This document shows positions 1,872-31,332 of a stretch of DNA of 32,000 nucleotides, in pieces; positions within the stretch are counted from its first letter, which is position 1; the number at the start of each line of letters is the position of its first letter. The position numbers and the translations under genes were made by a program. This DNA is from Thermofilum adornatum. Its GTDB lineage: Archaea; Thermoproteota; Thermoprotei; Thermofilales; Thermofilaceae. The notes under the pieces are model-generated. The model was not told the origin of the DNA, ran no database searches, and saw only the letters and a list, made by a program, of their open reading frames with translations. The stretch is from NCBI RefSeq assembly GCF_000446015.1, contig NC_022093.1, positions 30,001-62,000 on the forward strand, read 5' to 3'.

Positions 1872-1977
1872 TGCCGTCGTGTAATAAATGTTTGTCTTAC
1901 ATTTAAGTATTACGAGCCTGTATGCAAGAGGGGGGCTAATAGTTAAATTGGTTTCCATCTTTTATAGAGGGGTAACC

Positions 1978-11861: not shown

Positions 11862-12395
11862 GTGGTGTTGGTGTCTGGAGATCCGAAGATCTTGCGGGAC
11901 GTTTTGCTTGCTTCTGGGAGGCGTGTCAAGCTCTATCGTAGAATAGTTGAGGCCGATGGGAAAACGTTTGAGAAAGACCTCGTTGTATTTGGGTCTAGTG
12001 TGGTGATTGTCCCGGTGCTTGGTGATGGGAGAATTGTGTTTGTCAGGCAGTGGCGCGCCTCTATTGCTGGTTGGGTTCTCGAGTTGCCTGCTGGGAGGGT
12101 GGAGCCCGGAGAAGACCTGTTGGAGGCTGCTGGTAGGGAGCTGGTTGAGGAGACTGGGTTTAGGGCTGGGTCGCTTAGGGTTCTGGGGAGCTTCTATGTG
12201 GCGCCCGGCTATAGTGACGAGGTTATAAGTGTGGTTAGGGCTGACGGTCTGGTGGAGGGCCAGTCGCGTCCCGAAGAGGGGGAAGTGCTTAGGACTGTGT
12301 TTATGAGGCCTGAGGAGTATCTTGGATTGCTGGGTAAGGAGACTCTCGACCTCAAGAGCATCGCGGGTGTTCTCCTGTACATGTCGACTGGGTGA
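11862..12395 (+). CDS. Nudix hydrolase, ADP-ribose pyrophosphatase-like
   Basis: Nudix box GRVEPGEDLLEAAGRELVEETGF (G-x5-E-x7-REUxEExGU), with QWRASIAG..LELPAG upstream and PGYSDE downstream, as in NudF-type enzymes. GTG start. Confidence 0.85.
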   Translation: MVLVSGDPKILRDVLLASGRRVKLYRRIVEADGKTFEKDLVVFGSSVVIVPVLGDGRIVFVRQWRASIAGWVLELPAGRVEPGEDLLEAAGRELVEETGFRAGSLRVLGSFYVAPGYSDEVISVVRADGLVEGQSRPEEGEVLRTVFMRPEEYLGLLGKETLDLKSIAGVLLYMSTG

Positions 12396-13849
12396 AGGGC
12401 TTGGGGCTGAAGACTTCTGGTCTCCTCTTTTATGCAGAGAGGATATACAGCACTGTTGTCGGCTTCCTCTTTATATTGCTGGTCACGAGGAATCTCTCAC
12501 CCGAAGAGTTCGGCGCCTGGAGTGTCTTGTCTTCTATCCTTACATATGCTTGTCTAGCTACTTTTACGAATTACTGGGTTACGAGGCTCAGGGCTAGGGG
12601 GGTAGTGGAGGCTACTACTAGCGGCTTAGTGCTTTCCCTCATTTTTACGCTTGTGGGTGCGGGCGCTCTCCTAGTGCTGATGGATAGGATAGCTATTGAG
12701 TTCAGCGTCCCCGCGTCTTCACTCTTCATTATTCTTTTCTATGTGCCAGTCATTTATCTGAACTCGACTATTTATGCGAGCCTCTACGCCGTCAACCCTT
12801 CAAGGGCCGCCATATCGGAGTTTCTCTTCGAGACGGGTAAAATCGTCGTTGCAGGTGCCTTTTGGCTGGCTGGGAGGATAACTCTGAACACGGCTCTGCT
12901 GGCAGTTCTTGGCGGCCACATTTCCCAGTTTGTGTATCTATTCGTATCTATGAGGAGAGACTTCTCTGTGAGGCCGAGGAAAGAAGTTGTGGGGAAGATT
13001 TTGTCCTTCTCGGTATTTAACGTTTTGACCCAGCCCGCTTCTCTTATTGCGAGCCTCGACGTGCCGCTCATCTCATATGTCATAGGAAACCTTGCAGTGG
13101 CATACTATACAGTCGTAAACACTTTCTCGAACCTCGTCGCTTATTCCTATGTCCTCGCGAGGGGGCTTCTTCCCACGATGTTGCAGACAGACGAGAAACA
13201 TGTCCATTTGAGGAGTATAGAGGAGTCGCTGAGGCTTGTCCTTCTATTAGGTGTCCCTTCACTTGTAGGCGTACTGTTCCTCGCCCCGAACCTCCTGTAC
13301 CTGTTTAGGCCTGAGTATGCCGTTGCCGGTGACGTTCTCAGGCTCGCATCTTTCTCGGCCCTGATTGGAAGCATTAGTGGTGCCCTAGGCGACGCGTTGC
13401 AGGGGATAGAGAGGGCTGACATAGAGGGTAAACCACTGAGAGAAGTAGCTCGATCGCGGATATTCAAGGTGTTCATGCTTGGTTACCTAAGGCTAGCGGT
13501 CGGGTTCCCAATTCTCATCGGGGTAGTTACAGCGATAAGGGACCCGCTGAGGGCAGCCTTATTTGCAAGGGGCGCCTGGCTAATGGGAGACATCGCGGTA
13601 CTTATTGTGCTGGCCATATGGACCCGCAAACTTGTAGACTATAGAAAGATGGGGGCAATCGTTCTCAAGTATCTCGTGGGATCGCTTCCAGCGGCGACCG
13701 TTGCGTGGCTCATAAATCCTCTCAAGATAAGAGAGGCGCTACTTGCCGTGACCCTTGCGGGGGCCATATACTTTGCTATCGTATACTTGTTGGACTCCTG
13801 GTTTAGGAGGCACTTTGCCATGCTATTATCACGCCTGAAGAAAGGTTGA
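12392..13849 (+). CDS. MOP-superfamily polysaccharide/oligosaccharide flippase (Wzx/Polysacc_synt-like)
   Basis: 485 aa with at least 12 hydrophobic segments. The N-terminal pattern (TVVGFLFILLVTRNLSPEEFGAWSVL) is typical of polysaccharide-biosynthesis flippases. The GTG start overlaps the Nudix stop (GTGA, 12392-12395). Confidence 0.72.
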   Translation: MKGLGLKTSGLLFYAERIYSTVVGFLFILLVTRNLSPEEFGAWSVLSSILTYACLATFTNYWVTRLRARGVVEATTSGLVLSLIFTLVGAGALLVLMDRIAIEFSVPASSLFIILFYVPVIYLNSTIYASLYAVNPSRAAISEFLFETGKIVVAGAFWLAGRITLNTALLAVLGGHISQFVYLFVSMRRDFSVRPRKEVVGKILSFSVFNVLTQPASLIASLDVPLISYVIGNLAVAYYTVVNTFSNLVAYSYVLARGLLPTMLQTDEKHVHLRSIEESLRLVLLLGVPSLVGVLFLAPNLLYLFRPEYAVAGDVLRLASFSALIGSISGALGDALQGIERADIEGKPLREVARSRIFKVFMLGYLRLAVGFPILIGVVTAIRDPLRAALFARGAWLMGDIAVLIVLAIWTRKLVDYRKMGAIVLKYLVGSLPAATVAWLINPLKIREALLAVTLAGAIYFAIVYLLDSWFRRHFAMLLSRLKKG

Positions 13850-15992: not shown

Positions 15993-18098
15993 TTAGCTCA
16001 ATTGCTGTTCAGCCTTTTCCTGTGAAGTTTTCTCCCTTTCGTTTTTATTTTGTCTCTTGGATCTGATATACAAAAGGGAAACAAAGAGAAGAAGTACTAC
16101 TAGTAGTATGTTTATTGCAATAGAGTAGCCCAGAGCTGTTTCTGTCCGTGAAAGCTTTACGGCCAGTTCCTTGTACTGGGCTTGGAGTTTGAGCAGTGTC
16201 TCCATTGTGTCCATATAGTCGTTTATCACTTGTGAGAGCCTTGTCTGTAGGTATGTACAGTTCTGGAGGCACGACTCGTAGAGTGACTTGTATGTTTCTG
16301 CGTCCAGAATGTATTTTGTAGCGTTCTCTATGCAGGACTGTAGGAATGTTTTGTAGGCTTGGAGCTCGGTCTCGTTTATGCATTTTTTGCTTTCTAGCTG
16401 TTGTTGGATTGAAAGAAGCGGCACATATTTCCTGAAGACTTTTTCTGCAAGTTTACCTAAGACGTTGTAGCCTGTCTCGTCCTCTTTCCAGGAGCCCTCG
16501 TCCCAGTAGAAGAAGCCGTTTATTCTTCGCGACTCCTTCAAGAAGAATATCTCCCACAAGCTTGCCTGGGCCTCTTGGTCTGGTTTCCCTCTTCTCTGCC
16601 AGTCCCACGGCTGGAGACCTGGGTTTTCCACGCTCCTGTACCCTATCTCTAGGAATACGACTGGTTTCCCGTAGAGGAACACCAGTGGCTCTATTCTTGT
16701 CTCGTGCACGATGTCCCAGCTCGTAATATTCAGGATTGGGTAATACGCATCTACACCTATGAAGTCAAGCATGTCGGTAAATATCGTGGCCTCGTGTCCC
16801 CAGTTGGCAGAATAGCTTATTGGTCCACTATATTTTGCTTTGACCTTTAAGATGAGGGGGCGCCAGCTGGGGTCGGCCTGTAGCATGGAGAGCTCTGTCC
16901 CAATGATATAGGCATCTACGCTTTTTTCTTGAGCTATTTCCGCATACTTGAGGAGTATAGCCTCGTAGCTCTTGAACCAGAAGTCCCTATTTAGCGGGTT
17001 TACCTCTCCGCTCCAGCTATTTTTGACGTTTAACCCTATTCTTAGGAAGACCTTGAATCCCCTCTGTTTAGCAGCGTCTATAGCGTAGCCAAGCTGGTCG
17101 TCTGGGACTGTTACACTGGAGGTGTGGATAACGCTAAACACCGGAGAGTCCATCTCATAGTAGACTGTGTACTGGACACTGTTGAATCCTATGTCCTTGA
17201 GTTGGTCTAGGAGGTTTTCGAGCCACCCCTTTGGGAAGTCTCCCCATAGGGGCACGTTTACGCCGAGAAAGTACATGGATGCGTTAGAAGGCTCAGAGAA
17301 CGGGTAAAATACGTTGCTGTCCTCTCCGTAGTCTTCCTGTATCGCTACCGCGTCGCATCCCCCATATATGTAGGTTAAGGCATCGTAGCCAATCATCTTG
17401 TTGAGGGGACTCGTAGAGGCCTTTGTGGATACTATGCACCACGTAGACGCATTAACAGCTTTGGCGGCGCTTGCCATCTTGTAGTAGTGGTCGATGTATT
17501 CCCACTTCTTCTCCCCATAACCGTAGACCGCGCTTTCAATCACTATCTCCACGCCTGAGAGATTAAGAGAGACGCCTCCTACAGGGCCGAAGACGTCATC
17601 TGGGTTCCAGAAGTTTATCGCTACCCTCATGTTCTTGCTCTTGACGTAGTCTATGAGCTCTTTCTGGTGTAGCCTAGCCTGCTGCTTGTTCGAGGCGACT
17701 CTTCCCACTAGATAGTCGAAGCCGAACTCGTCGAGGAATATGCCAGCTACGCCCATGTCTGTCCACAGGTCTATCCTTTTCTTTGCTTCGTCTAGTGGCA
17801 AAGTAGACTGCACATATCCGTAGAAAGTCGCCCTTGATCTCTGGATAATCTTCAATGCGTTAAGGTGGTCTGGATGTTCAGGCGACTCTAGCCCCGCTCC
17901 TAGAACTACAATGTCGTATTTGTCGAAGAGTCTTGCAGCGCCCTGTATAGTAGTGCTACCGTTGAAGAGGCTCGGGTAGCCGTAATAGATAAGTAGCTTT
18001 TTTGGCTTGTTCTGTGGAGAGACAGAGGGATAGCCATATGCTATAGCCATCGCTATAATTATTACAGCGATCAATGCAAGCGATACAATCCTAGACAT
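15993..18098 (-). CDS. Doubly anchored extracellular protein with two glycosidase-like TIM-barrel regions and a C-terminal coiled-coil stalk
   Basis: N-terminal signal anchor. Region 1 (LLIYYGYPS...YDIVVLGAG...FYGYVQST...GVAGIFLDEFGFDY) resembles the spherulin-4/GH135 or GH114 pattern. Region 2 (AYIIGTELS...ISYSANWGHE...LDFIGVDAYYP...VVFLEIGYRS) resembles clan GH-A/GH113-like enzymes with two candidate catalytic Glu. This is followed by a Cys/sequon-bearing coiled coil, a TM helix (ALGYSIAINILLVVLLLFVSLLYI) and a Lys/Glu-rich tail. Confidence 0.65.
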   Translation of the reverse strand: MSRIVSLALIAVIIIAMAIAYGYPSVSPQNKPKKLLIYYGYPSLFNGSTTIQGAARLFDKYDIVVLGAGLESPEHPDHLNALKIIQRSRATFYGYVQSTLPLDEAKKRIDLWTDMGVAGIFLDEFGFDYLVGRVASNKQQARLHQKELIDYVKSKNMRVAINFWNPDDVFGPVGGVSLNLSGVEIVIESAVYGYGEKKWEYIDHYYKMASAAKAVNASTWCIVSTKASTSPLNKMIGYDALTYIYGGCDAVAIQEDYGEDSNVFYPFSEPSNASMYFLGVNVPLWGDFPKGWLENLLDQLKDIGFNSVQYTVYYEMDSPVFSVIHTSSVTVPDDQLGYAIDAAKQRGFKVFLRIGLNVKNSWSGEVNPLNRDFWFKSYEAILLKYAEIAQEKSVDAYIIGTELSMLQADPSWRPLILKVKAKYSGPISYSANWGHEATIFTDMLDFIGVDAYYPILNITSWDIVHETRIEPLVFLYGKPVVFLEIGYRSVENPGLQPWDWQRRGKPDQEAQASLWEIFFLKESRRINGFFYWDEGSWKEDETGYNVLGKLAEKVFRKYVPLLSIQQQLESKKCINETELQAYKTFLQSCIENATKYILDAETYKSLYESCLQNCTYLQTRLSQVINDYMDTMETLLKLQAQYKELAVKLSRTETALGYSIAINILLVVLLLFVSLLYIRSKRQNKNEREKTSQEKAEQQLS

Positions 18099-19943: not shown

Positions 19944-21665
19944 ATGAAAAGGCGGAATAATTGGAACGCACAGAGAAGAGTTGCCGGAGAAATGCTTCGC
20001 AATGTGCTTCGGTCTAATATACTCGTCTGGACCGGTATACTTGTATCAGTTGCCACGATGCTCTTTTCTAGCTGGCTTTCTGTCTTGCCGTTAGTCCTGC
20101 TAGCACTTGCTCTGAGCATTATGGCATCTGAGAGACGGGGCATAAACTACAGGTTGCTCGCTTTTCTGCTGGGCCTCGTTTCTTTCCTTGTGGCAGTATT
20201 CGTATTTGCTACCATTCCTCCACTTTATCTCTCTTGGATAGCCTTTTTTGGCTTTCTCTTGGTTCTATCTGCTAGGAACTCGAAGATCCTCGTGGTGTTC
20301 ATAATCCTCTTGTTTGTAATCCTGCCTCTTCTTGTAGCCTTCAGGGAGTACCTGACGGTTTCTACCTACAACATTGTAAGGGTTGGCTCCCCAGAGGAGC
20401 TGAAGACCCTCTTTAATAACCCGGGCTCTGTCGTCCTCGTTGGACACGCGATGGCCGATGCGGTCGCGCATACACAGCTTTCCCCCAACGAGAGGATAGC
20501 AGAATGGGAAGAAGTGGTCATAAACGGGACTCCTTACTGGATATTTGCAGTTACACCATTAAACACAATTGCGCAGAACTATGTTAGCAAGCTTATACTT
20601 GTAGATGTCCAGACAGGAGAGACTAAAGCGATACCCGTCCACATGTCGGTTGGCTCGGGACTCTGGCTTACCAACAGCATTGAGCTGAGAAGCTTCCTCT
20701 TGAGTAGCCAGCCAATAGGAAATACCTACCCATTCATCCATGGAGGCAAGCCCTACTTCGCCGCATGCGTGAATAGGCTTGCAAATCTGGGACTCTCAGA
20801 GTACCCAGGCGAGGTATACGTGTATGACCAGGACGGAAACCTGAGAAGGTCTCCCCAGTTCAGCGGAGACATGTCTATGCCTGAGAACTATGACTGGGAG
20901 TACCTAGACTGGTACGTTGGGAAGTGGCTCTACTATCTCTCTAGCCTGTCGCCGGTCTCCCACTCTTTCTTCTCGAGGGGGTTCCTATGGATCCCAGCGA
21001 GCCAATACAGCCAGGACCTGCTCAACATGACTCTACTGTTGCCTGGAAGAAGCGGCGACACTGTCCGCGTGTATTTCGGCGTTAGCCCCAACAACCCGAA
21101 CAGCATAGTCTCGATAATCATAGCAAACAATACAGGTGTCTATTATTATGACGTCAAGACATTGGGAATCTACAGCCCATACTACGTCCAGTCCCTAGTG
21201 CAGGCAAAGCTACCAGCGATAAGCGGGGGACACCTATACTCAAAATACGCACAGCTAGTCTACTCCAATGGCTACCTATGGGTTATACCCATATACGCCC
21301 AGACAAACGTGGTCTCCCTCTGGGGTCTAGCCCTAGTTAACGCGACAAGCCCGTCCGAGATGAGCATTTACCAGTATTCGCCCAGCTACGGGTCCTACAA
21401 AGACTTCCTAGCAATGGCGCTCAGCTTAGGCACAGGTCAAATAAGCCATCCGACATGCAAAGTTGTAGCGGGCAACGTGACCCGCTTACTACAGTTTGTC
21501 TACAAGGGCGACACCTACTTGGTTCTCGAGGTTAACGGAAGACTACTATACGCGACCCCAGACATCGGCATCCAGGAGTTTACGAGGCTCCTCACAGTCA
21601 AGACAGGCGACCAGGTGAGGCTTTGCGTCAGCGATGATAGGATTGTCCAGGTTTTTAAGCCTTAG
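19944..21665 (+). CDS. Polytopic membrane protein with a large C-terminal extracytoplasmic domain (hypothetical, faint UPF0182-like resemblance)
   Basis: About 5-6 TM helices in the first ~135 aa, then about 430 aa that look soluble. The C-terminal stretch (AQLVYSNGYLWVIPIYAQTNVVSLWGLALVN) is reminiscent of the ...LYVEPIYL... region of UPF0182/COG1615 proteins. This resemblance is weak and recalled from memory. A TATA-like cataaatataa lies upstream (19921-19931). Confidence 0.65.
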   Translation: MKRRNNWNAQRRVAGEMLRNVLRSNILVWTGILVSVATMLFSSWLSVLPLVLLALALSIMASERRGINYRLLAFLLGLVSFLVAVFVFATIPPLYLSWIAFFGFLLVLSARNSKILVVFIILLFVILPLLVAFREYLTVSTYNIVRVGSPEELKTLFNNPGSVVLVGHAMADAVAHTQLSPNERIAEWEEVVINGTPYWIFAVTPLNTIAQNYVSKLILVDVQTGETKAIPVHMSVGSGLWLTNSIELRSFLLSSQPIGNTYPFIHGGKPYFAACVNRLANLGLSEYPGEVYVYDQDGNLRRSPQFSGDMSMPENYDWEYLDWYVGKWLYYLSSLSPVSHSFFSRGFLWIPASQYSQDLLNMTLLLPGRSGDTVRVYFGVSPNNPNSIVSIIIANNTGVYYYDVKTLGIYSPYYVQSLVQAKLPAISGGHLYSKYAQLVYSNGYLWVIPIYAQTNVVSLWGLALVNATSPSEMSIYQYSPSYGSYKDFLAMALSLGTGQISHPTCKVVAGNVTRLLQFVYKGDTYLVLEVNGRLLYATPDIGIQEFTRLLTVKTGDQVRLCVSDDRIVQVFKP

Positions 21666-21711: not shown

Positions 21712-22107
21712 TTATGGTATTATGTGTAGCCCACTCCTAGAGGCGAGTTTTCTCAGCTTCTTGTCATAAGTTGCAAGTGCGCCTTCACGGAGAGCAACAC
21801 TGAACACGATATAGTCGTTCAACGTCTCTAGCGAAGCTCCCTCTTCCAGCATTCTACCTATGCCTCTCCGCACAGTTTCATAGTCCTCACATATAAGCTC
21901 AAAATCTGACAACTCCTTCATCTTGAGCTCTAAAAAAGAAGGATTACCTGTAAGCCTGGCAAGTACCCAGAGATACTCGTAGAGAACAATGCGAGGCACT
22001 ACTACCTCGTTTTCTTGGAGTACCGCGTAAGCCTCTTTATGATGCTCGCTGTCCTCGAAAGTAGCATACACAAGAACATTAGTGTCAACTACTACTCGAT
22101 GCCTCAT
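21712..22107 (-). CDS. vapC: PIN-domain ribonuclease, VapC-type toxin
   Basis: VVVDTNVLVYA N-terminal PIN motif. 131 aa. It overlaps the upstream AbrB-type antitoxin gene by 23 nt. Confidence 0.85.
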   Translation of the reverse strand: MRHRVVVDTNVLVYATFEDSEHHKEAYAVLQENEVVVPRIVLYEYLWVLARLTGNPSFLELKMKELSDFELICEDYETVRRGIGRMLEEGASLETLNDYIVFSVALREGALATYDKKLRKLASRSGLHIIP

Positions 22108-22321
22108 CCAGAGCCTCCCTGACTATCTCATCGATGTCTTCTGGGCTTAGACTTCTGCCGAGCCTAAGCGTAGTCCACCTCCTCCTGTAAGGTTTCACGA
22201 GAATTACTCCGCCCTCTTCGTCAAGCTCTACTTCGACGTAGTCTCCCTCCTTTATGCCAATCCTGCTTCTTATATCTGCTGGTATAGTAATCTGGAAGTT
22301 CCTAGTAACTTTAACCCGCAT
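22085..22321 (-). CDS. vapB: AbrB/SpoVT (MazE-like) antitoxin, VapB-type
   Basis: From the internal ATG at 22321: MRVKVTRNFQITIPADIRSRIGIKEGDYVEVELDEEGGVILVKP, a swapped-hairpin AbrB signature. A TATA-like tttatttatta lies about 25-35 nt upstream on the minus strand. Confidence 0.85.
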   Translation of the reverse strand: MRVKVTRNFQITIPADIRSRIGIKEGDYVEVELDEEGGVILVKPYRRRWTTLRLGRSLSPEDIDEIVREALDEASSSS

Positions 22322-22465
22322 AGTAAAAATATGTAACATCTAATAAATAAATCTTTCTAGTATAAAGGAGGAAAATAAAACCTTTCAACAAAGCAGGAGG
22401 GCAAAGATAGTTGCCGTGCTAAATGCGGAAAACTAGCAAGCCGTTCTAATCTAAATTTTCACATC

Positions 22466-24607
22466 TTACAATATCTCTCGGGCTTTCCTGATGCACTCTT
22501 CCCTGAATGCATTGTAGGCCTCTGTGAAGCCTTTCATTGTCTTTGTTCTCGAGCCGAAGCTGGCCCACTCGTTTGGCTTTAGGCCTCCTGTGCCCATCTC
22601 TTCTACCCCATAGATTCCGACCTCTTTAAGAGTCTTTGCAAGTTCTGGCGTGAGCTCGTAGGCCTTCCTGAAGTCCTCGATCGTCAATAATGTTTCTAGA
22701 ACTTCTGGGCTGTGTTTCCTGGTTATTGACCAGTCGTAGTCCTCGAGTCTTAACCCTTTTTCGGCGTACTCTAGGTGGACGTTGAGCTGGTGGTTGGGAA
22801 ACTCAGTGTTTGTCATGTTTCTCCTGGCTAGTGTTAGGTATGTGTCGGAGGGCTTTCTCTTTGACGCTGGTAGGACGTCTATGCCTCTTAGAACCTGTTC
22901 GGCTTGCGTGGGGTTGATGCTGTAGTTCTTGACGAGGTAGCTTATCCATTTTGGATAGTTTTCGTCGCTGAAGAATATCCACCAGACTCTTTGGGCCACA
23001 AGGGTTCCTGCGAGGCTGATTGCCTCCTCGTATCTCTTCAGGTAGGCCATGACCTCTTCTAGCGTTTTCCCGTGGGTGCCTGCCTTTAGTAGGAAATCGG
23101 CTAGAGCCTCGCTTGCAAGGGTCCTTATGTATGCCTGGCTAGCTGTCAGGTAGGCTTTTTCCTCCAGGCTAGACGCCTCCACGCTGTATCCCCAGCCCGT
23201 CGGTGCACGCCATGTTTTGCCTGGCTCCGCCCCGGGAACCCCGAGCCTCTTTGCCAGCTCTGCTAAGGCTTGCTCGGGCTGCTCGAGCCTTCTCAGCGCT
23301 TCTAGTATTAGTTCGGCCGCCTTGGCTTCTCTTAGATGTGCCTCGAGCCTGCCACCCATGTTTGTCTCGTATACTTTGGTTAGTCTAACTCCTCTCTTCA
23401 CTGCTTCTGTCCTCCCCTCTATTTTGGCTAGGATGAGCTGGACCTCTTGGGAAACAGTAAACGTGACTGTGTTGTTTGTGCCTATACCGAGGCTTTCAAG
23501 CCTCCTAGTTATCTCTATGGACGCCTCGCTACTACCTGCGACCTTAAACACGATGTTGGGTCTTCCTCTTTCCAAGTGGCTTGGCCATCCCCAGAGCAGG
23601 TACGCGTCGTATCGCCTAAAGTAGTCTTCACTTAGCTGGTAGATCCTCATTGCGTCTCTCAGGCTTCCCTCAACATCATCAGCAACGTTTGGGTTTAACT
23701 GGTAGCTGACCATCCCGTCCTGAAAGTCTAAGAGATAGGCGGCTGGCCTCAAAACCTCCATGTTAGGCCATAGAGCAATCAGTGTAGCTGCCATGGCCAG
23801 GGCGTCAGGGTCTTTTTCGATGTTTTCGACTAGTTCTGGGTGCTTCTTGAGGTAATCTTTGAACCTGTCCCAGAGAGAGGGGTCGTCCTTGTAGGCCTCG
23901 GCTGCAAGAACGGGATTCGTGGATACCTGGACGAAGCCCATGTGCCTGAGCCATCTCAGTCCAAGGGCGTAGTCGTTGCCGAACCTGCATAGACCCAGCT
24001 TAGACATCTTGTAGTATGCGTTGGCTTGGAGTTCTCGTACAGCCTCAAAGAGGAAGCTGGATGCAGGAAATGCTGGGTCAATTTTCTTCTCTATTTTTTC
24101 AGCCATCCATGCAAGCATGCTCTTTGTTTTTGGGTTGCTTGACATGACCTTCTTCATGTCTCCCAGAATGTGGTCGACAATGTACTTGGCGGATACGGGC
24201 TCTGCTACCTTACTTCTCTCTTCTTTTTCTAGTGAGGAAACTTCCTCCCTGATAAAAGACAGCGCCTTGACTCGTTCCTTTTCAGGTATTTTTGCCCAGT
24301 CGGCCTCTAGTCCAGCGGTGTTTAGGGCTATTTCTATTAGAAGCTGGTAGATCCATGCCCTCTTTGCAAGCTTTTCTTCGCTACTAGCCGACTCCAGTCT
24401 TAGAAATTCTAGGTGTGCTTGCCTGCATACTTGACCAACGATTCGCGAGTACTCGCCGATTGTTGCAGGATTTAGGATGTTGTCGGCTCCCAGCTCTGGG
24501 TATCCTTTTAGTGCTAGGTACACAGCAAGAGAAGAATGGTCATGTGTAGGTGGGACTGTGGGGAGTTCTTCTCGGTATAAAAACGGGGGGCTTTTAGGAC
24601 TCGACAT
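22466..24607 (-). CDS. Large (713 aa) protein with a divergent transaldolase/fructose-6-phosphate-aldolase-like TIM-barrel core
   Basis: Residues ~205-425 carry the TAL/FSA motif series in order: FGND (FLDT-like Asp), VQVSTNPVL (TTNP), GMVSYQLNPNVADDVEG (VS.EV...; Glu replaced by Gln as in FSA), NIVFKVAGS (iKIP Schiff-base Lys), GIGTNNTVTFTVSQ (GI.tN.TL.FS..Q), YETNMGGRLE (SPFVGR). The ~200 aa N-terminal and ~290 aa C-terminal helical extensions are unrecognised. Confidence 0.55.
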   Translation of the reverse strand: MSSPKSPPFLYREELPTVPPTHDHSSLAVYLALKGYPELGADNILNPATIGEYSRIVGQVCRQAHLEFLRLESASSEEKLAKRAWIYQLLIEIALNTAGLEADWAKIPEKERVKALSFIREEVSSLEKEERSKVAEPVSAKYIVDHILGDMKKVMSSNPKTKSMLAWMAEKIEKKIDPAFPASSFLFEAVRELQANAYYKMSKLGLCRFGNDYALGLRWLRHMGFVQVSTNPVLAAEAYKDDPSLWDRFKDYLKKHPELVENIEKDPDALAMAATLIALWPNMEVLRPAAYLLDFQDGMVSYQLNPNVADDVEGSLRDAMRIYQLSEDYFRRYDAYLLWGWPSHLERGRPNIVFKVAGSSEASIEITRRLESLGIGTNNTVTFTVSQEVQLILAKIEGRTEAVKRGVRLTKVYETNMGGRLEAHLREAKAAELILEALRRLEQPEQALAELAKRLGVPGAEPGKTWRAPTGWGYSVEASSLEEKAYLTASQAYIRTLASEALADFLLKAGTHGKTLEEVMAYLKRYEEAISLAGTLVAQRVWWIFFSDENYPKWISYLVKNYSINPTQAEQVLRGIDVLPASKRKPSDTYLTLARRNMTNTEFPNHQLNVHLEYAEKGLRLEDYDWSITRKHSPEVLETLLTIEDFRKAYELTPELAKTLKEVGIYGVEEMGTGGLKPNEWASFGSRTKTMKGFTEAYNAFREECIRKAREIL

Positions 24608-24741
24608 GTGTAGGTTTTCTTATACAACTGCATATTATCTTTTTTGGCAAGACTTATATGAAGGGCTGTACAAATCCTTGAACACATGTGTCCAATACGT
24701 GGCTTAATTAGGCTGGGCTACCAACTATTTCTTGACAGAAA

Positions 24742-25986
24742 ATGCAGAAACCAAAAAGATATGTAAGGATCGCCGCCATACTACTTTTGTTTGTTGCAGT
24801 AGGAACAGGGATAGGAATGTTACTCACAAATAGGGGGCAACAGTCCCAAACCCAGATACCGAGCCTTCCATCTGTTAAAGCTAGCCCAGTAGAGTCATAC
24901 ACGGGCTTCGCCTTGAAGTTCGCGCTACTGTCTGGTCTTGGAGACAAAAATACAGCAGTGTCGCCTTACAGCGTCTACCAGGCGCTGTTAATGCTGACCG
25001 AGGGATCCGCAGGGGATACAAGGTCAGAACTGCTAGGTGCTCTCCAGCTGTCTTCCCAGGCTGAGGCTAGAGAATGGTTTAGGTCAAGCACCCAGAGGTT
25101 CCTAAGTGTCCAGCAACCAGCCAGGACAGCTATTGCGAACAGTATTTGGATAAGGGAGGGCGTACCCGTAAAGCAGACCTACGTGAATATCCTCAGGGAA
25201 TATTATCTTGCAGAGGAATACTCTTTTAGCGAGCCCTTAGACGCCACAAAGAGAATAAACCTATGGGTATACGACAAGACATACAGGCTCATAGACAAGA
25301 TAATAGACCACCTTGACCAGTCCGCGATTATAGTACTCGTAAACACGGTTTACTTCAAGGCAAACTGGACAACACCTTTTGAAAACACCTTTAATGATAC
25401 TTTCAACTCGCCTAGGGGGCCCGTAACGGCCACATACTTATCGGGTACAGTAAATGCAAAAGTGTTGGAAACTGACAGCTACATAGCTGTTGCGCTGGGC
25501 TACGTTGGGACAGATATAAAGTTTGTAGCTATAATGCCCAAGAAAGCCGACCTGAAAAGCTTTATGACGAAAATCTCCGAGAAAGATCTACTAGGCATAT
25601 TTACTGAGCTTATGAAGAAAGAAGACGAAAGAGTCAAGCTCGTACTGCCCAGATTCGACATAGACAGCGGCATTATAGAGCTTGTACCCCTCCTGAAACA
25701 GATGGGCATAAAGAAGGTATTCGACCCAGACCAAGCAGACCTCACCGAGATGCTTGACACGAGCAAGCTCGCTGGTAAAGCATTTGCCAGCAATGTTTTC
25801 CACAGGGCTAGGGTAAAAGTAGACCTTTACGGGACAGAGGCGGCAGCCGCAACAGCGATCGTAATCAAGGTTACGGCTGTTCCGGGAGAACTGAAAACAA
25901 TAAGGGTAGACAGGCCCTTCGCATTCTTCCTGGTAGACCCCTCTACAAACGCCATCCTCTTCGCTGGAAGCTACGTGGAGCCTTAA
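24742..25986 (+). CDS. Serpin (serine protease inhibitor family) with an N-terminal membrane anchor/signal
   Basis: Hinge and reactive-centre loop GTEAAAATAIVIKVTAVPGELKTI, followed by RVDRPFAFFLVD...ILFAGSYVEP, the classic serpin C-terminus. The conserved NTVYFKANW is present. The N-terminus has a hydrophobic segment (IAAILLLFVAVGTGIGMLL). Confidence 0.9.
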   Translation: MQKPKRYVRIAAILLLFVAVGTGIGMLLTNRGQQSQTQIPSLPSVKASPVESYTGFALKFALLSGLGDKNTAVSPYSVYQALLMLTEGSAGDTRSELLGALQLSSQAEAREWFRSSTQRFLSVQQPARTAIANSIWIREGVPVKQTYVNILREYYLAEEYSFSEPLDATKRINLWVYDKTYRLIDKIIDHLDQSAIIVLVNTVYFKANWTTPFENTFNDTFNSPRGPVTATYLSGTVNAKVLETDSYIAVALGYVGTDIKFVAIMPKKADLKSFMTKISEKDLLGIFTELMKKEDERVKLVLPRFDIDSGIIELVPLLKQMGIKKVFDPDQADLTEMLDTSKLAGKAFASNVFHRARVKVDLYGTEAAAATAIVIKVTAVPGELKTIRVDRPFAFFLVDPSTNAILFAGSYVEP

Positions 25987-26007: not shown

Positions 26008-27132
26008 CTATTTCTTTTTCAGCTCCTCGGCAAATGCAACCAAATCATAGTAGGCCCGTATTTTGGACACGTGTCTCGCACCCATAGGGCCGGGACGCTT
26101 CATATAGAACCTGTTAACCTCTGGGAGGGTTCCATACAAGCCCTTCTTCAATGCGAGGAAGCCGAGACGGGCAAGGTCAACAATGTATCCTGCGAGCGCC
26201 GGGCTATCATTTATACGCATGTTTACTACGAGCTCGTCCATGAAGCCGCCAAAGCTAATCCACTGCATATGCATGGAAACAAACTTCTTGTCTCCTAGCG
26301 GCTCTAGGTATCCCGTAGGTCTAATATAGTGGGGAGGGTCGTAGCCTAGAATATCCTTTAAGAAGCTTGACTTTGTCTTCTCCTTGGCATCGTTCCTGTC
26401 TGGATCCATCAGAGCGAGGAAATCAGTGTTGCCCCCAATATTGAACTGCGCAATTGAGAGAATCTTCCTATTCCTCTCCTTCAGATGTTCAGCAAGATCA
26501 ATAGTGAGAGGGGTTGCTCCGGTTGCCCCATCATCTCCTAGGACGAGAGACCTGCTTTGTTCTGCTCTCTTAATAAAGCCGGGGCTCCCAGCCACGTATG
26601 CCGGCTGAAGGTTAACATGGGCAAGATTGCCGCGCCTGAGCAACAGGTAGGCATATACCTGTGAATGTGGCAAGATGCCTTTGAGGGCTTTTTCCTCTGC
26701 TTCCTCCCAGGAGAGTACAGGCTCAGAGTAAACAGTGCTAGTAACATCTATAACAACGTCTGGCTTAACATCGTCTAGCCACTCCTCGAACTTAGCATAG
26801 GCGTCTCCAAGACTCCTGCCCGAATCGAGGGACTTAACCTTCAAAAAGCTGGGTGTACTCCTAAGAGCTAGACCCGGCGAGACATAGATATCCCTAAGCT
26901 CCGGCTCGGGCTCCAGCCCATACATTTTAGCAACTTCATATAGGCTTTTGCCGACCTTCTCCTCATCTACATCGATACTCCCCACAATTTCGAGGTCACT
27001 GATGCCTATGCCAAGATCTAGATTCCCGAGAGGAACCCCAGAAGGCTCAAGCTTCCCTGCCTTAATCTTCGAAAGCCCCCATGCAAAAATAGTTGCCACA
27101 TATCCCTGTCCAATCAGCGCCACTCTGACCAT
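26008..27132 (-). CDS. ino1: myo-Inositol-1-phosphate synthase (archaeal short type)
   Basis: N-terminal Rossmann motif VALIGQGYVAT. The FNIGGNTDFLAL motif corresponds to the conserved (S)YN.GGN.D region of MIPS. The protein has about 374 aa, like the archaeal/bacterial enzymes. Confidence 0.78.
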   Translation of the reverse strand: MVRVALIGQGYVATIFAWGLSKIKAGKLEPSGVPLGNLDLGIGISDLEIVGSIDVDEEKVGKSLYEVAKMYGLEPEPELRDIYVSPGLALRSTPSFLKVKSLDSGRSLGDAYAKFEEWLDDVKPDVVIDVTSTVYSEPVLSWEEAEEKALKGILPHSQVYAYLLLRRGNLAHVNLQPAYVAGSPGFIKRAEQSRSLVLGDDGATGATPLTIDLAEHLKERNRKILSIAQFNIGGNTDFLALMDPDRNDAKEKTKSSFLKDILGYDPPHYIRPTGYLEPLGDKKFVSMHMQWISFGGFMDELVVNMRINDSPALAGYIVDLARLGFLALKKGLYGTLPEVNRFYMKRPGPMGARHVSKIRAYYDLVAFAEELKKK

Positions 27133-27505: not shown

Positions 27506-28462
27506 TTACTCGTAGAGCCAGCACTTGACTTTTCTCCCGTCTTTTGTAATGACTGGAGGTGCCTGTGTTATACACTTGTCCATCCTGTAGGGACACCTGT
27601 CTGCAAATGGGCATCCAGTAATCTTTCCTGCAAACTCAACCTTCCCAGGTCTATATTTTATTTTTTCTTCCCATGGCTTGTCGATGCTTGGAGTAGACTC
27701 TGACAGCATTTTGGTATAGGGGTGGAGCGGGTCCAATAAGATGCTGGCAGGACCCTCTTCTACTACTTGGCCCTTGTAGAGAACCAGAATCCTGTCTGAG
27801 GCATAGTGCATTGTTGCCAGGTCGTGTCCTATGAGGAGGATCGATATCCCAAGTTTCTGTTTGAGATCCAAGAAGATGTTGAGTATGTCTACCCTGGTTG
27901 AGGCATCAACCATGGAGACAGGCTCGTCTGCAACTATTAGGTCGGGCTTGACAAGAAGTGCTCTTGCTATGGATATTCTCTGAAGCTGTCCACCGCTTAG
28001 CTCGTGCGAATGCTTGTGGAGAACTTCGTCGTAGTTAATCCCAACCATTTCTAAGTGTTGCCTTATCATGCCCTCTGCCTCGACCTTGTCATGTGTAAGC
28101 TCGTAGTTGTTCACCACGTCGAAAAGGGGCTCGAGGACTGTTCTCCTGGGGTTAAAGGAGCCGTAGGGGTCTTGGAAGACTCCCTGGACATGTTTATAGT
28201 AGTTTTTGAGGAAGCTAGCAGAATAAATGTTAGTGATGTCTTTGTCTCTGAAAAGTAGCTGGCCACTCGAGGGCTTGTATACTTTGAGTATTATTCTGGA
28301 TATTGTTGATTTTCCGCTACCAGACTCTCCGAGCAAGCCTACGATTTCGCCTTTCTTCACGTCAAAGGACACATCACTTAGTGCCTGCACGACCGTGGAG
28401 CCGAATAGTCCGAGCTTAAATGTCTTCGACACGTTCCGGAGCTCAATTATTTTTTCACTCAT
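27506..28462 (-). CDS. Opp/Dpp-family ABC transporter ATP-binding protein (OppF/DppF-like)
   Basis: Walker A GESGSGKST, signature LSGGQLQRISIARAL, Walker B LIVADEPVSMVD, and the Cys-containing Opp-type C-terminal extension (GCPFADRCPYRMDKC). It overlaps the upstream ATPase gene by 4 nt. Confidence 0.92.
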   Translation of the reverse strand: MSEKIIELRNVSKTFKLGLFGSTVVQALSDVSFDVKKGEIVGLLGESGSGKSTISRIILKVYKPSSGQLLFRDKDITNIYSASFLKNYYKHVQGVFQDPYGSFNPRRTVLEPLFDVVNNYELTHDKVEAEGMIRQHLEMVGINYDEVLHKHSHELSGGQLQRISIARALLVKPDLIVADEPVSMVDASTRVDILNIFLDLKQKLGISILLIGHDLATMHYASDRILVLYKGQVVEEGPASILLDPLHPYTKMLSESTPSIDKPWEEKIKYRPGKVEFAGKITGCPFADRCPYRMDKCITQAPPVITKDGRKVKCWLYE

Positions 28463-29439
28463 TCCTTTCTCACCTCATAATATAACCAACAAGAAACCCT
28501 GCGACCGTTTGCCAGAGTGACTACTGGGGGCTCGTCCGTAAAGCAACGTTTAACAGCGTATGGGCACCTTGGATGGAAAACACAGCCTGGCAGCGGAGCG
28601 GCGAGGTTTGGCGGGACACCTTTTACGCCCTCCAGCCTAGTAGTTGTATAGTGTACGCCTTTGGGTGGAATAGCCTTGATTAGCATCTTCGTGTAGGGGT
28701 GGAGCGGGTTACTGATAATTTCGTCTATGGGTCCTTCTTCAACGATTTTTCCTCCATACATTACAACTATTCTGTCGGCGATCTGCCTAATTGACGAGAT
28801 GTCGTGTGAAATTATGAGGATAGACTCTACGATGCCGCTGTCTCTTAGGTCTTTTAGAAGCTCCAAGACGTATCTCTGGCTAACGACGTCCAATGCCGAG
28901 GTAGGCTCGTCCGCGATTAGCAAGCTAGGATTGAAAAGTGTCGCAATTGCTATTGCAACCCTCTGTCTCATGCCTCCTGAGAGCTCCAGTGGGTACATGT
29001 CTAGAACCTTTTCTGGTAAATTCATCATGTTGAGCCTCTCGACGAATATTTTCTCTAGCTCTTTGGGGTCAACGTCTTTCTCGACTGCCAAGTCGTGTAG
29101 GAATACTCTAAGCTTTCTTATCACAGGAAGCGCATCTAAGACGTACTGCGGTATTATCGAGACCTTTTTTAAGAGTATTTTGCGGCGCAGAGCTGGACCT
29201 ATCTTTACGAGGTCTATGTCCCCGTTTAATACGGCTGAGCCGTCCACAATATGCATTGGGGGCTTCGGCAACACAAGTGACTGGGCCAGTGTAGATTTTC
29301 CGCTACCAGACTCTCCTATTAGACCAACTATGCTTCCCTTGGGGACATCAAATGAAACCTTGTTCACTGCCTTGATGGTTGCAAACAGTGTCCTATAGTG
29401 GACAGTAAGGCCCCTAACCTCAAGCGTATTTGCCGACAC
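28459..29439 (-). CDS. Opp/Dpp-family ABC transporter ATP-binding protein (OppD/DppD-like)
   Basis: Walker A GESGSGKST, signature LSGGMRQRVAIA, Walker B LLIADEPTSALD, and C-terminal GCVFHPRCPYAVKRC. GTG start. Confidence 0.92.
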   Translation of the reverse strand: MSANTLEVRGLTVHYRTLFATIKAVNKVSFDVPKGSIVGLIGESGSGKSTLAQSLVLPKPPMHIVDGSAVLNGDIDLVKIGPALRRKILLKKVSIIPQYVLDALPVIRKLRVFLHDLAVEKDVDPKELEKIFVERLNMMNLPEKVLDMYPLELSGGMRQRVAIAIATLFNPSLLIADEPTSALDVVSQRYVLELLKDLRDSGIVESILIISHDISSIRQIADRIVVMYGGKIVEEGPIDEIISNPLHPYTKMLIKAIPPKGVHYTTTRLEGVKGVPPNLAAPLPGCVFHPRCPYAVKRCFTDEPPVVTLANGRRVSCWLYYEVRKE

Positions 29440-29441
29440 AT

Positions 29442-30326
29442 CTATTCACCTCTAGCCCTAGGATTGAATACCTCCTCAAGCGAATTGACGAGGAGGTAAA
29501 GCGAAGTTATCAGGACGACTATCACTATTCCTGGAAGGAGCCATGCCCACCATACCCCTGATACCAGTGCCCCCATCTGGAGCCACTGCTGTACCCTTGC
29601 GAATAGGGACCAGTCTGATGCCTTGATGCCGAGAAACTCTAATGTAACGATGGTTCCCAGGGCATTGGCAAGCTGTATAACGAAGACTAGGAGGACATAC
29701 GACGCCATGTTGGGCAACAGATCCTTAAAGATTATTTTCAATGTAGAGTTGCCGCTAAGCTTCGAGACGGCTACGAAGTCGCTGACCTTTAGTGCCGAAG
29801 CTATAGACCTTGTAGCCCTGGCAGTCCAGTGCCAAGAAAGCAGACCCGTCATAACGCCGAGGAGCACTATTGTATATAGGTCTTTAAATGGCCCTGTCAC
29901 TGGGGCTCCCAAGATGTAGAATGTCCCCAGGATGACTAAGAGAAAAGCCGGCGGAATCATCAATAAGAGAATTGTTAAACCGTCTAGAACTGAGTCTGTT
30001 ACTCCACCTACGTAGCCGGCTATGATGCCGAGGCCGACACCGACTATTGTTGCAATTAGCGCGGCAATAAGTCCTACTGATAGAGATACCCTTAGCCCAT
30101 ACACAGTTGCACTGAAGACATCGTATCCCATATTATCGACACCGAAGGGGTGTTCCCATGAGGGTGGCTGGGACCTCACTGGGAGAACCTGGTTGGGCTT
30201 GTATGGCGTCAAAAAAGGCCCAATTATGGCTAAAGCGATTACTGCGAAGATTGCTGAAACGCAGAACCAGAACATCTTATTCCTCTTTAACAAATAGATA
30301 GTTATGCTTCTCGACATTTTACACAC
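29442..30326 (-). CDS. Opp/Dpp-family ABC transporter permease (OppC/DppC-like)
   Basis: Six hydrophobic segments, with an N-terminal TM followed by a periplasmic loop (PFGVDNMGYDVFS) typical of OppC/DppC. The start is GTG at 30326 or ATG at 30317. Confidence 0.85.
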   Translation of the reverse strand: MCKMSRSITIYLLKRNKMFWFCVSAIFAVIALAIIGPFLTPYKPNQVLPVRSQPPSWEHPFGVDNMGYDVFSATVYGLRVSLSVGLIAALIATIVGVGLGIIAGYVGGVTDSVLDGLTILLLMIPPAFLLVILGTFYILGAPVTGPFKDLYTIVLLGVMTGLLSWHWTARATRSIASALKVSDFVAVSKLSGNSTLKIIFKDLLPNMASYVLLVFVIQLANALGTIVTLEFLGIKASDWSLFARVQQWLQMGALVSGVWWAWLLPGIVIVVLITSLYLLVNSLEEVFNPRARGE

Positions 30327-31332
30327 CCGATATGCCGAGCCTTATCCTTGGGTCTAGCATTGCGTACAAAATGTCCACAATAAAATTGGCCACAATAACC
30401 ATCAATGTGTATGCGACAATTATGCCCTGGATGAGAAAGACGTCCCTGAAGTTAATTGCATAAATCAAAGCTATGCCTGCTCCAGGATAATTAAACACAG
30501 AGGAGACAACGATGCCCGCGACTATTATCGTTCCTAGCTGTATTCCGAGACCAGATATCTGTGGATTAATAGCGTATCTGAACGCGTACTCTGCAATTTT
30601 CCTGTCGGAGAAGCCTAGCATCTCCATGTACCTGGAATAGTTTGAGCCAAGCTCCTGAATCATCATAGACCTCATTCCAGACGCCCATCCACCAATAGCT
30701 ATGAGGGTCAGTGACAAGAAGGGGAGAGTGTAAGCTTTCAAGAAATTTGTCAGGGTCTCCCCGTTGAAAGAAGTGAAAATAGCGTCTATGTCGCTAGACA
30801 TAATCGTTGCCTTGAATACGGGATAGACCACGCCGAGCTCATAGGCAAAGAGGAGCCCAAGTAGGAAATAGGGAGTAGCTGTCAAAACGTAGAATATGGG
30901 CAAAAGAAACTTGTCGAGCTTTCTGTTCCTAGCGGCTAGAGCACCGACATAGTTCCCGATGAACCAGCTAACGAGGACGCTTGGCGTCAAGAGTAAGAGA
31001 TCTCTAACGAGTATCTCACGCAACTTGCTTGTTACCGGTGCAGAGAAATAGGTACTGTAGCCCAGGTCACCCATTATTAGCCTGCTCCAAAACAGTGCGT
31101 ACTGCTGTGGCAGGGGAAGGTTCCACCCTAGAAACTCTATAGCTCTCCTCCTGTATTCTTCGATTTGTTCCTCTGTGTATCTTACGCCTGGAGCCATCAT
31201 GGACCTCATTACATTGGTAAGGGCTGGGTCTCCTGGGGCGAAGCGGATAAGTAGCCATACAATAGTTATGGCAATAACGAAAACGACTAGATATGTTGCT
31301 CCGCGCTTTAGAATATAGGATTTAACAGACAT
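30319..31332 (-). CDS. Opp/Dpp-family ABC transporter permease (OppB/DppB-like)
   Basis: N-terminus ILKRGATYLVVFVIAITIVWLLIRFAPGDP and C-terminus DILYAMLDPRIR are hallmark OppB/DppB motifs. Confidence 0.88.
   Translation of the reverse strand: MSVKSYILKRGATYLVVFVIAITIVWLLIRFAPGDPALTNVMRSMMAPGVRYTEEQIEEYRRRAIEFLGWNLPLPQQYALFWSRLIMGDLGYSTYFSAPVTSKLREILVRDLLLLTPSVLVSWFIGNYVGALAARNRKLDKFLLPIFYVLTATPYFLLGLLFAYELGVVYPVFKATIMSSDIDAIFTSFNGETLTNFLKAYTLPFLSLTLIAIGGWASGMRSMMIQELGSNYSRYMEMLGFSDRKIAEYAFRYAINPQISGLGIQLGTIIVAGIVVSSVFNYPGAGIALIYAINFRDVFLIQGIIVAYTLMVIVANFIVDILYAMLDPRIRLGISGV

Follow-up and report, generated by a model that had tools for sequence, protein, structure and literature searches.

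We analysed a 32,000-nucleotide stretch of the Thermofilum adornatum genome (contig NC_022093.1, positions 30,001 to 62,000; hereafter the window) and followed up one of its genes, which occupies positions 22466-24607 on the minus strand. This open reading frame (ORF) of 2,142 nt starts with ATG and, according to the ORF list and a check of the translation, encodes a protein of 713 amino acids (aa) with the motifs of transaldolase (TAL) and fructose-6-phosphate aldolase (FSA), referred to below as the TAL-like protein. The gene and its parts are as follows:

22466..24607, minus strand: complete coding sequence of the 713-aa "long TAL-like" protein, with the stop codon at 22466-22468; full-length homologues have 690-745 aa.
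23993..24607, minus strand: all-helical N-terminal domain, residues 1-205, predicted by AlphaFold2 (AF2) and confined to this family; a sister family of 455-465 aa has it in shortened form.
23348..23992, minus strand: predicted barrel strands 1-6, residues 206-420, with D212, S229-T230-N231, Q303, K355, N378/T380 and T415/M417/R420, assigned by the profile PF00923, AF2 and a residue map to TalB and FSA.
22883..23347, minus strand: 155-aa insertion, residues 421-575, between strands 6 and 7, with helices and a β-hairpin at 466-478 in the AF2 secondary structure.
22469..22882, minus strand: residues 576-713, comprising strands 7 and 8 and the helices of the C-terminus, with a predicted anion-binding motif (AF2, alignment to TalB, invariance).

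A first reading of the DNA made from sequence alone (the sequence-only reading) had reported that all class-I TAL/FSA motifs are in place, and every residue it listed was found at its position when the translation was checked: D212 in RFGNDYALG (codon 23972-23974), S229-T230-N231-P232 in VSTNPVL, Q303 in VSYQLNP, K355 in NIVFKVAGS, N378 and T380 in GTNNTVTFT, and M417 together with R420 in ETNMGGRLE (R420 codon 23348-23350), so that the motif range it had given, 23348-23974, coincides with the stretch bounded by the R420 and D212 codons. It had also proposed a search with PF00923 (TAL_FSA), and this Pfam profile gave a significant match (E = 2.5e-13 and 50.5 bits, the gathering score being 27), which is far beyond chance, and the TAL-like protein is therefore a real transaldolase relative. 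The match covers residues 222-400, equivalent to profile positions 17-152 of 285, and is limited to this part because the insertion interrupts the barrel. Direct sequence searches of the PDB gave marginal matches to one transaldolase (E = 0.13 with the protein and E = 0.0028 with the family profile as query) that were of no use for classification, and a fold search was therefore needed.

The AF2 model of the full protein, built on 32 homologues, has a mean pLDDT of 92.3 and a pTM of 0.90 and contains eight β-strands in (β/α)8 order, namely 208-211, 225-230, 299-303, 352-357, 377-382, 412-416, 576-579 and 598-602. When the model was compared with the PDB by Foldseek, 34 out of 34 matches at E ≤ 1e-3 were transaldolases, the best of them from N. 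gonorrhoeae (7bbx/3clm, E ~1e-8), with a target-normalised template-modelling (TM) score of up to 0.69; the alignments are approximately 525 columns long and therefore bridge the insertion between strands 6 and 7. The suggested AlphaFold check for a complete barrel thus turned out in its favour, with the eight strands in order and transaldolases as the sole significant structural matches. According to this model, the barrel is complete but interrupted, strands 7 and 8 coming after the 155-aa insertion, which is absent from TalB, from FSA and from the sister family in a bridging alignment and part of which (approximately residues 454-470) is missing from many Bathyarchaeial members. In strand 7 (576-579) the sequence LPASKRKP (L579-P-A-S582-K583-R584) corresponds to GASFR of TalB (S226, R228), in strand 8 (598-602) TNTEFP (T599-N-T-E602-F-P604, 599-604) corresponds to TalB LTIAP, and the last helix, residues 685-712, matches the C-terminal helix of TalB in the bridging alignment. 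These assignments modify the earlier placement of the barrel at residues ~205-425, of which the motifs in strands 1-6 hold, whereas the end at ~425 has to be moved to the strands at 576-602. Likewise, of the two flanks described as lacking a recognisable domain, the C-terminal one of ~290 aa is made up of the insertion followed by strands 7 and 8 with the anion-binding motif. The N-terminal one of ~200 aa, when its domain was modelled alone (AF2, pLDDT 92.2), had no significant relative in a fold search of the PDB, with a best E of 0.6 and TM scores of at most 0.41, these insignificant matches being mostly designed helical repeats.

The register relative to E. coli TalB and FSA was obtained by hhalign, where the family gave low probabilities against the single TalB and FSA sequences (11.8% and 1.5%, used for register only), and it was confirmed by the bridging alignment through the shorter sister family. 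The resulting equivalences are:

D212: TalB D17.
S229/T230/N231: TalB T33/T34/N35.
Q303, codon 23699..23701, minus strand: TalB E96 and FSA Q59, the catalytic-Glu position of transaldolase.
K355, codon 23543..23545, minus strand: TalB K132 and FSA K85, the predicted Schiff-base lysine in strand 4.
N378: TalB N154.
T380: TalB T156 and FSA T109.
T415: TalB S176.
M417, codon 23357..23359, minus strand: TalB F178 and FSA Y131.
R420: TalB R181 and FSA R134.
S582 and R584: TalB S226 and R228.

Conservation was assessed in 75 full-length homologues with 43-73% identity to the window protein. D212, T230, N231, P232, Q303, K355, N378, T380, T415, M417 and R420 are invariant in 75 out of 75 sequences, as are R426, S582, K583, R584, E602, P604 and Q607, while Y413 and H424 each deviate in one sequence only. 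The substitutions noticed in the single sequence, Gln for the catalytic Glu as in FSA and Met at the Phe/Tyr position, are thus features of the whole set, and K355, the conservation of which had been named as a check, is present throughout. Invariance at this level of identity argues for an active enzyme, in which the Gln/Met pair is a fixed feature and not a sign of decay. Together with the PF00923 match and the complete predicted barrel, this supports the suggestion of a new subfamily, and we consider the TAL-like protein very probably an active Schiff-base aldolase or transaldolase belonging to it. The sequence-only reading had offered a non-catalytic scaffold that binds sugar phosphates as the other option, and a sugar-binding scaffold or regulator keeping the TAL fold would agree with the loss of the canonical Glu and Phe/Tyr and with some 490 extra helical residues that could mediate protein-protein contacts. 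However, the Schiff-base Lys and the other catalytic and binding residues, including those of the anion site, are invariant across phyla, the Gln/Met pair is shared with the sister family, which speaks for a different catalytic solution rather than decay, and the TAL-like protein occupies the place of an enzyme in catabolic operons. The scaffold is therefore extremely improbable, and with the catalytic residues invariant we rejected it.

Membership in the TAL/FSA superfamily follows from the PF00923 profile, the predicted fold and the position of the catalytic lysine, with K355, D212, N231, N378 and T380 aligning to residues of the TalB active site. Within the superfamily, the catalytic Glu of classical transaldolase is Gln303 in 75 out of 75 sequences, and the transaldolase equivalog models gave at best 29.6, 29.5, 23 and 20.5 bits, whereas their cutoffs are 344, 367, 712 and ~234. 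From FSA the family shares the Gln at the Glu position and lacks the catalytic Tyr (Y131, strand 6), Met417 standing in its place in every sequence. The family should not be filed as classical transaldolase or as FSA. Its fold and type of chemistry are already known; new are the architecture, with an N-terminal domain and an insertion within the barrel, the residue set, from which both Glu and Tyr are missing, and the probable substrate. Our literature search returned no description of the TAL-like family, of a fructuronate aldolase or of an archaeal final stage of the inositol pathway of the Thermotoga type, and the NCBI label for the family is only "transaldolase family protein".

More than 1,000 database clusters match the family, which at 50% clustering is reduced to roughly twelve full-length representatives. 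When the species genomes of GTDB were scanned, it turned up in 164 species, mainly Thermoproteota including Bathyarchaeia, and 80 loci listed from these, all of them in metagenome-assembled genomes (MAGs), were taken for the analysis of gene neighbourhoods. Their archaeal hosts comprise Thermofilaceae/Infirmifilum, Bathyarchaeia, other Thermoproteales and Desulfurococcales, MAGs labelled Nitrososphaeria, Hadarchaeota and Brockarchaeota, and the few bacterial ones are Aerophobetes, Anaerolineae, Dehalococcoidales and Clostridia. One Thermofilaceae MAG carries two paralogues on separate contigs (CAZCTW010000011.1, locus L013, and CAZCTW010000001.1, locus L014), one of which adjoins GFO, DegT and KduI/IolB genes.

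For the 80 loci, ORFs were called in up to 10 kb on each side, the neighbours were clustered by all-against-all BLASTP and the recurrent clusters were annotated. While the first four loci examined suggested no conserved context, a pattern emerged on clustering the neighbours of all 80, with the following recurrent families:

GFO/IDH/MocA oxidoreductase, 19 loci: IolG (TIGR04380), 359 bits, cutoff 355.
Zinc-dependent alcohol dehydrogenase, 12 loci: IolM (NF041097), 551 bits, cutoff 450.
Creatininase-family hydrolase, 9 loci: IolN (NF041098), 240 bits, cutoff 245.
Xylose-isomerase-like (XylIso) TIM barrel, 9 loci: IolO (NF041099), 229 bits, cutoff 300; PDB match to TM0416 at 2e-45.
UxaE-family epimerase, 13 loci in six of seven sequence groups: PF16257; PDB match to 9kcs at 3e-129 for the neighbour in locus L084.
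KduI/IolB cupin, 12 loci: PF04962.
2-Hydroxyacid dehydrogenase (2HADH), 14 loci: glyoxylate reductase (NF009714), 600 bits, cutoff 455.

At least one of IolM, IolN, IolO, UxaE and KduI/IolB lies within 10 kb in 30 of the 74 full-length loci, which belong to six out of seven sequence groups and to both archaea and bacteria, and two or more members of the wider neighbour set were found in 23 of the 74. In L084 a single strand carries an array of genes for the TAL-like protein, GDPD, IolN, IolO, a second TIM barrel (XylIso2), UxaE, IolG and IolM, and the same gene set recurs in other orders in L069, L070, L071 and L079/L080. The UxaE and TAL-like genes overlap in L069 and L071, and in L035 (Aerophobetes) the stop codon of UxaE abuts the start codon of the TAL-like gene. 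Furthermore, a distant relative, P0212 (L092 5379-8633), is a natural fusion of 1,084 aa that joins a TAL-like barrel to a UxaE domain, and its gene precedes one for a XylIso-TIM protein. UxuA, UxuB, KdgK, KdgA and kinases were sought in the core clusters of iol, UxaE and TAL-like genes, and none was found. The second XylIso-TIM protein, of approximately 310 aa, is a constant member of the clusters; its best NCBIfam match is a weak one to hydroxypyruvate isomerase (35.9 bits), and it has no sequence relative in the PDB.

Several further observations were made in these neighbourhoods. The contig of P0212 also carries Arf-like (a faint match) and Roadblock/LC7 genes, suggesting an Asgard archaeon. 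A small cyclophilin-like protein (PF04126) recurs within the iol/UxaE/TAL-like clusters (L057 1091-1474, L080 13318-14046, L069 14772-15152, L070 6019-6420 and others). TAL-like segments also occur in giant predicted proteins, namely P0182, a predicted ORF of 4,369 aa in which 2HADH, PfkB and TAL-like segments are joined, P0199 (2953 aa), P0225, P0233 and P0235, which may be true multi-enzyme fusions or else read-through resulting from stop-codon reassignment or gene-calling errors.

Since the genes of many homologues lie within inositol and sugar-acid clusters, cleavage of a six-carbon keto-sugar acid is probable for this family rather than a pentose phosphate role. D-Fructuronate is the 6-carboxy analogue of fructose 6-phosphate, the carboxylate at C6 being the sole difference, and the successive action of IolO and UxaE inverts C3 and C4 of the ketose, giving the D-fructo configuration required by TAL/FSA enzymes. 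We propose, with some reserve, that the TAL-like protein may quite possibly be a Schiff-base aldolase or transaldolase acting on D-fructuronate, which it would split into a dihydroxyacetone unit and tartronate semialdehyde, a choice of substrate, products and direction that we infer from the clusters and the active site. D-Fructuronate would be supplied from myo-inositol via IolG, IolM, IolN and IolO and a UxaE-type C4 epimerase or, alternatively, from hexuronates via a KduI/IolB-type isomerase feeding the same hub. K355 in strand 4 would form an imine with the C2 carbonyl of the 2-keto sugar acid, which D212, N231, N378 and T380 would position as in transaldolase, while the C6 carboxylate would be bound at the anion site formed by R420, S582, K583 and R584, the phosphate site of transaldolase. 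Cleavage between C3 and C4 would then yield tartronate semialdehyde and an enzyme-bound dihydroxyacetone unit, which could either be hydrolysed off, as in FSA and in keeping with Gln303, or be moved to an aldehyde such as glyceraldehyde 3-phosphate. The tartronate semialdehyde would be reduced to glycerate by the adjacent hydroxypyruvate/glyoxylate reductase, and the Hyi-like second TIM-barrel protein, more speculatively, might act before it as a hydroxypyruvate isomerase. In papers citing Rodionova et al. (PMC5931981, PMC12632266), the T. maritima inositol pathway ends with 5-keto-L-gluconate followed by D-tagaturonate, and UxaE is described as interconverting tagaturonate and fructuronate (PMC3750489). 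On a broader scale, and with still more caution, the family could be the missing C-C-cleaving enzyme of an undescribed inositol/hexuronate route in archaea and sporadically in bacteria, in which D-fructuronate is split without ATP-dependent activation, mannonate, 2-keto-3-deoxygluconate (KDG) and 2-keto-3-deoxy-6-phosphogluconate (KDPG) being bypassed, and in which the N-terminal domain and the insertion contribute specificity and acid/base function.

A number of results weigh against the cleavage of D-fructuronate. The TAL-like gene of the window is unclustered, with no iol, UxaE, 2HADH or uronate genes found in a search of the whole 32 kb, so the assignment of a function relies on homologues with 43-57% identity, and the clade closest to the window protein (L008-L011) also lacks neighbours of the iol/UxaE type. 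In total, 44 of the 74 loci are without any of these neighbours, the counts are uncorrected for shared ancestry, and the matches to IolN and IolO lie just under and under the respective NCBIfam cutoffs. In Infirmifilum sp. SLHALR2 (CP182482.1) the TAL-like gene (P0007, ~1.62 Mb) and the UxaE-like gene (P0355, ~0.72 Mb) are unlinked, approximately 0.9 Mb apart, and the latter is found in a housekeeping setting beside ribose-5-phosphate isomerase (RpiA), tRNA synthetase and pyruvate kinase genes; in I. lucidum the matching UxaE synteny also takes in phosphoribosyl pyrophosphate (PRPP) synthetase. With respect to the active site, the positions of the Glu and Tyr that would be expected as general acid/base are filled by Gln and Met, and the conserved Arg/Ser/Arg site cannot tell a carboxylate from a phosphate. 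Finally, among the close relatives of the UxaE neighbour a single one has been characterised, and the substrates in its assay were tagatose and fructose, both neutral.

As the anion site cannot separate phosphate from carboxylate, a role of the TAL-like protein in the pentose phosphate pathway or central carbon metabolism stays a serious alternative, although a rather unlikely one: it would be a divergent true sugar-phosphate transaldolase or fructose-6-phosphate aldolase that, for example, provides or recycles C3 units for ribose 5-phosphate synthesis in archaea without a canonical transaldolase. All phosphate-binding residues of transaldolase (R420, S582, R584) are kept, many of the loci are of a housekeeping kind, and the name given to the family by NCBI points in the same direction. 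PRPP synthetase genes were found near the pair of TAL-like and UxaE genes in four further loci, five Bathyarchaeial loci have Fae-Hps of the ribulose monophosphate (RuMP) pathway within 10 kb, both of which also count against D-fructuronate as the substrate, and the Infirmifilum UxaE gene adjoins ribose-5-phosphate isomerase close to PRPP synthetase. This Infirmifilum arrangement, on which the alternative is founded, is a conserved block of UxaE-like, ribose-5-phosphate isomerase A, thioredoxin-like, class I tRNA synthetase and ASCH-domain genes (L093 5173-11434; L094 5432-11455 and 17521-18408). On the other hand, the replacement of Glu by Gln and of Phe178 by Met extends to all 75 members, and the E96Q variant of TalB is severely impaired; the equivalog scores of 20-30 bits are far under the cutoffs, and the Tyr essential to FSA is gone. 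Moreover, no transketolase or Rpe gene was seen near the TAL-like genes, and the Fae-Hps link is restricted to one sequence group in comparison with six for the iol/UxaE link. The connection drawn at the outset to a missing non-oxidative pentose phosphate pathway is not the one to which the genomes chiefly point, the recurrent neighbours being inositol and hexuronate catabolism genes.

The assay on neutral sugars leads to another explanation, in which the protein is an aldolase of the same clusters that acts on a different substrate, such as a neutral ketohexose (D-fructose derived from D-tagatose, cleaved to dihydroxyacetone and glyceraldehyde), D-tagaturonate, 5-keto-L-gluconate or a keto-acid phosphorylated by a PfkB or FGGY kinase. 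A UxaE-family enzyme of Thermoprotei acts on tagatose and fructose in vitro, and the L084 UxaE matches 9kcs; PfkB kinases were detected in 7 loci and FGGY kinases in 9, and P0182 combines PfkB with 2HADH and TAL-like segments. We consider this explanation unlikely, because the invariant and highly basic anion site (S582-K583-R584 and R420) speaks for a substrate that is anionic, no kinase is encoded in the five best core clusters, and a requirement for the D-fructo configuration would agree with both epimerases being present. Some FGGY genes, in addition, are part of an adjoining set of glycerol kinase and glycerol 3-phosphate (G3P) dehydrogenase genes. In one Bathyarchaeial group (L049/L050/L059 18-4490, L041, L060) the FGGY kinase belongs to such a set with an FAD-dependent, GlpA-like G3P dehydrogenase, by which dihydroxyacetone or glycerol, if formed as a product, could be processed.

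In the window itself, the TAL-like gene is apparently monocistronic, with an A/T-rich spacer of 134 bp upstream and 126 bp downstream before a VapB/VapC pair. The spacer and the other genes and features of the window are:

24608..24741, no strand: intergenic region of 134 bp common to the TAL-like gene and the divergent serpin gene, as read from the sequence.
24742-25986, plus strand: serpin of 414 aa with an N-terminal hydrophobic segment (PF00079, 263 bits).
26008-27132, minus strand: protein of the myo-inositol-1-phosphate synthase family (PF01658, 96.6 bits), encoded at a distance of 1.4 kb from the TAL-like gene.
27506-31332, minus strand: four-gene ABC transporter of the Opp/Dpp type.
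21712-22339, minus strand: VapB (MazE/AbrB-type) and VapC (PIN) toxin-antitoxin pair directly downstream of the TAL-like gene.
1244-1958, minus strand: another PIN gene, which has a small partner ORF upstream.
3602-5701, minus strand: GH3 β-glycosidase.
15993-18098, minus strand: GH113-family protein.
8013-11327, plus strand: ORF of 1104 aa.
12392-13849, plus strand: ORF of 485 aa.
19944-21665, plus strand: ORF of 573 aa, the protein starting with several hydrophobic stretches.
5812-6933, minus strand: ORF of 373 aa.

By eye, TATA-like elements can be read on the strand of the TAL-like gene at 24632-24638 (ATAATAT, -25 to -31 from the ATG) and 24654-24659 (ATATAA), and the A/T-rich elements of 24608-24741 represent a putative promoter of its own. 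The rest of the window contains, beside the GH3 and GH113 glycosidases, the Opp-type transporter and the myo-inositol-1-phosphate synthase, a short-chain dehydrogenase/reductase (SDR) gene and housekeeping genes. The four sizeable ORFs at the end of the list had no Pfam match at E ≤ 1e-4 (E ≤ 1e-3 for the 573-aa ORF). The glycosidases and the Opp/Dpp transporter together indicate a polysaccharide-degrading heterotroph, and the serpin is of a kind uncommon in archaea. From the myo-inositol-1-phosphate synthase it follows that the organism makes inositol, which, so close to the TAL-like gene, is suggestive beside the link of the homologues to inositol catabolism, although it is not evidence in itself.

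If D-fructuronate is indeed cleaved, the family would represent a new enzyme activity, in which a keto-uronate is the substrate of an aldolase or transaldolase, and a new final stage in the breakdown of inositol and hexuronates in Bathyarchaeia, Thermofilaceae, Desulfurococcales, Hadarchaeota and Brockarchaeota, lineages that are abundant in sediments and hot springs and whose carbon metabolism is known almost wholly from annotation. The label "transaldolase" assigned by annotation pipelines may cause a non-oxidative pentose phosphate pathway to be read into MAG reconstructions although it is perhaps absent. Since the protein lacks both the transaldolase Glu and the FSA Tyr, it needs a third acid/base arrangement, and a hyperthermostable, dihydroxyacetone-utilising aldolase that accepts carboxylated aldehydes would be useful for biocatalysis. 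The partner UxaE gene occurs in cultured Infirmifilum species, and both genes are present in one sequenced genome of this genus, which makes the hypothesis directly testable.

Compared with classical transaldolase (EC 2.2.1.2), as represented by TalB and the N. gonorrhoeae and C. glutamicum structures 3clm, 7bbx and 3r5e, the TAL-like protein has the same (β/α)8 fold and strand order, and both have the Lys in strand 4, the Asp in strand 1, the Asn in strand 2, the Asn/Thr in strand 5, the Arg/Ser/Arg site and the C-terminal helix in common. It differs from it in the change of Glu96 to Gln and of Phe178 to Met, in its length, which is twice that of transaldolase because a 205-aa N-terminal domain and a 155-aa insertion are added, and in the genomic context of its homologues, which is inositol and uronate catabolism instead of the pentose phosphate pathway. 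With FSA (E. coli FsaA) it shares the Gln at the Glu position (Q59, Q303) and equal Lys, Thr and Arg positions, and the proposed reaction would be that of FSA with a C6 carboxylate in place of the phosphate, dihydroxyacetone being released from a fructose-configured 2-ketose. In contrast, FSA has Tyr131 where the TAL-like protein has Met417, comprises 220 aa without extra domains and acts on a phosphorylated substrate, whereas that of the TAL-like protein is probably unphosphorylated.

The 6-deoxy-6-sulfofructose transaldolase of the sulfo-TAL pathway likewise combines the TAL fold with a non-phosphate anion at C6, and its C3 aldehyde-acid is then handled by a neighbouring dehydrogenase or reductase. 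The likeness is one of logic only, as that enzyme is a transaldolase of ordinary length and its anion a sulfonate, not a carboxylate. In the Thermotoga maritima inositol pathway (IolG-IolM-IolN-IolO) and UxaE, the same five enzyme families are found as in the homologue clusters, and together they would make D-tagaturonate and D-fructuronate. In Thermotoga, fructuronate continues via UxuB, UxuA, KdgK and KdgA, as outlined in the cited reviews; the archaeal clusters have none of these four and contain instead the TAL-like protein and a hydroxypyruvate/glyoxylate reductase. A further comparison is provided by the sister family (455-465 aa; P0187, P0192, P0213 and others), which has the same Gln-for-Glu and Met-for-Phe replacements, shorter N-terminal helices and the common motifs WGNDYA, TTNP, SLQxxP, FKVPGT, GIGVN, MxGRLDD and ASxRGP. 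It differs in lacking the insertion between strands 6 and 7, and it is bacterial, with a context of LacI regulator, TAL-like and MFS transporter genes and no kinase, as in P0187 (L090 6314-7702; L091 8001-9389), which is flanked by genes for a LacI regulator and an MFS transporter in a bacterium from a fermentation metagenome. This kinase-free LacI/TAL-like/MFS unit fits action of the sister family on an unphosphorylated imported substrate.

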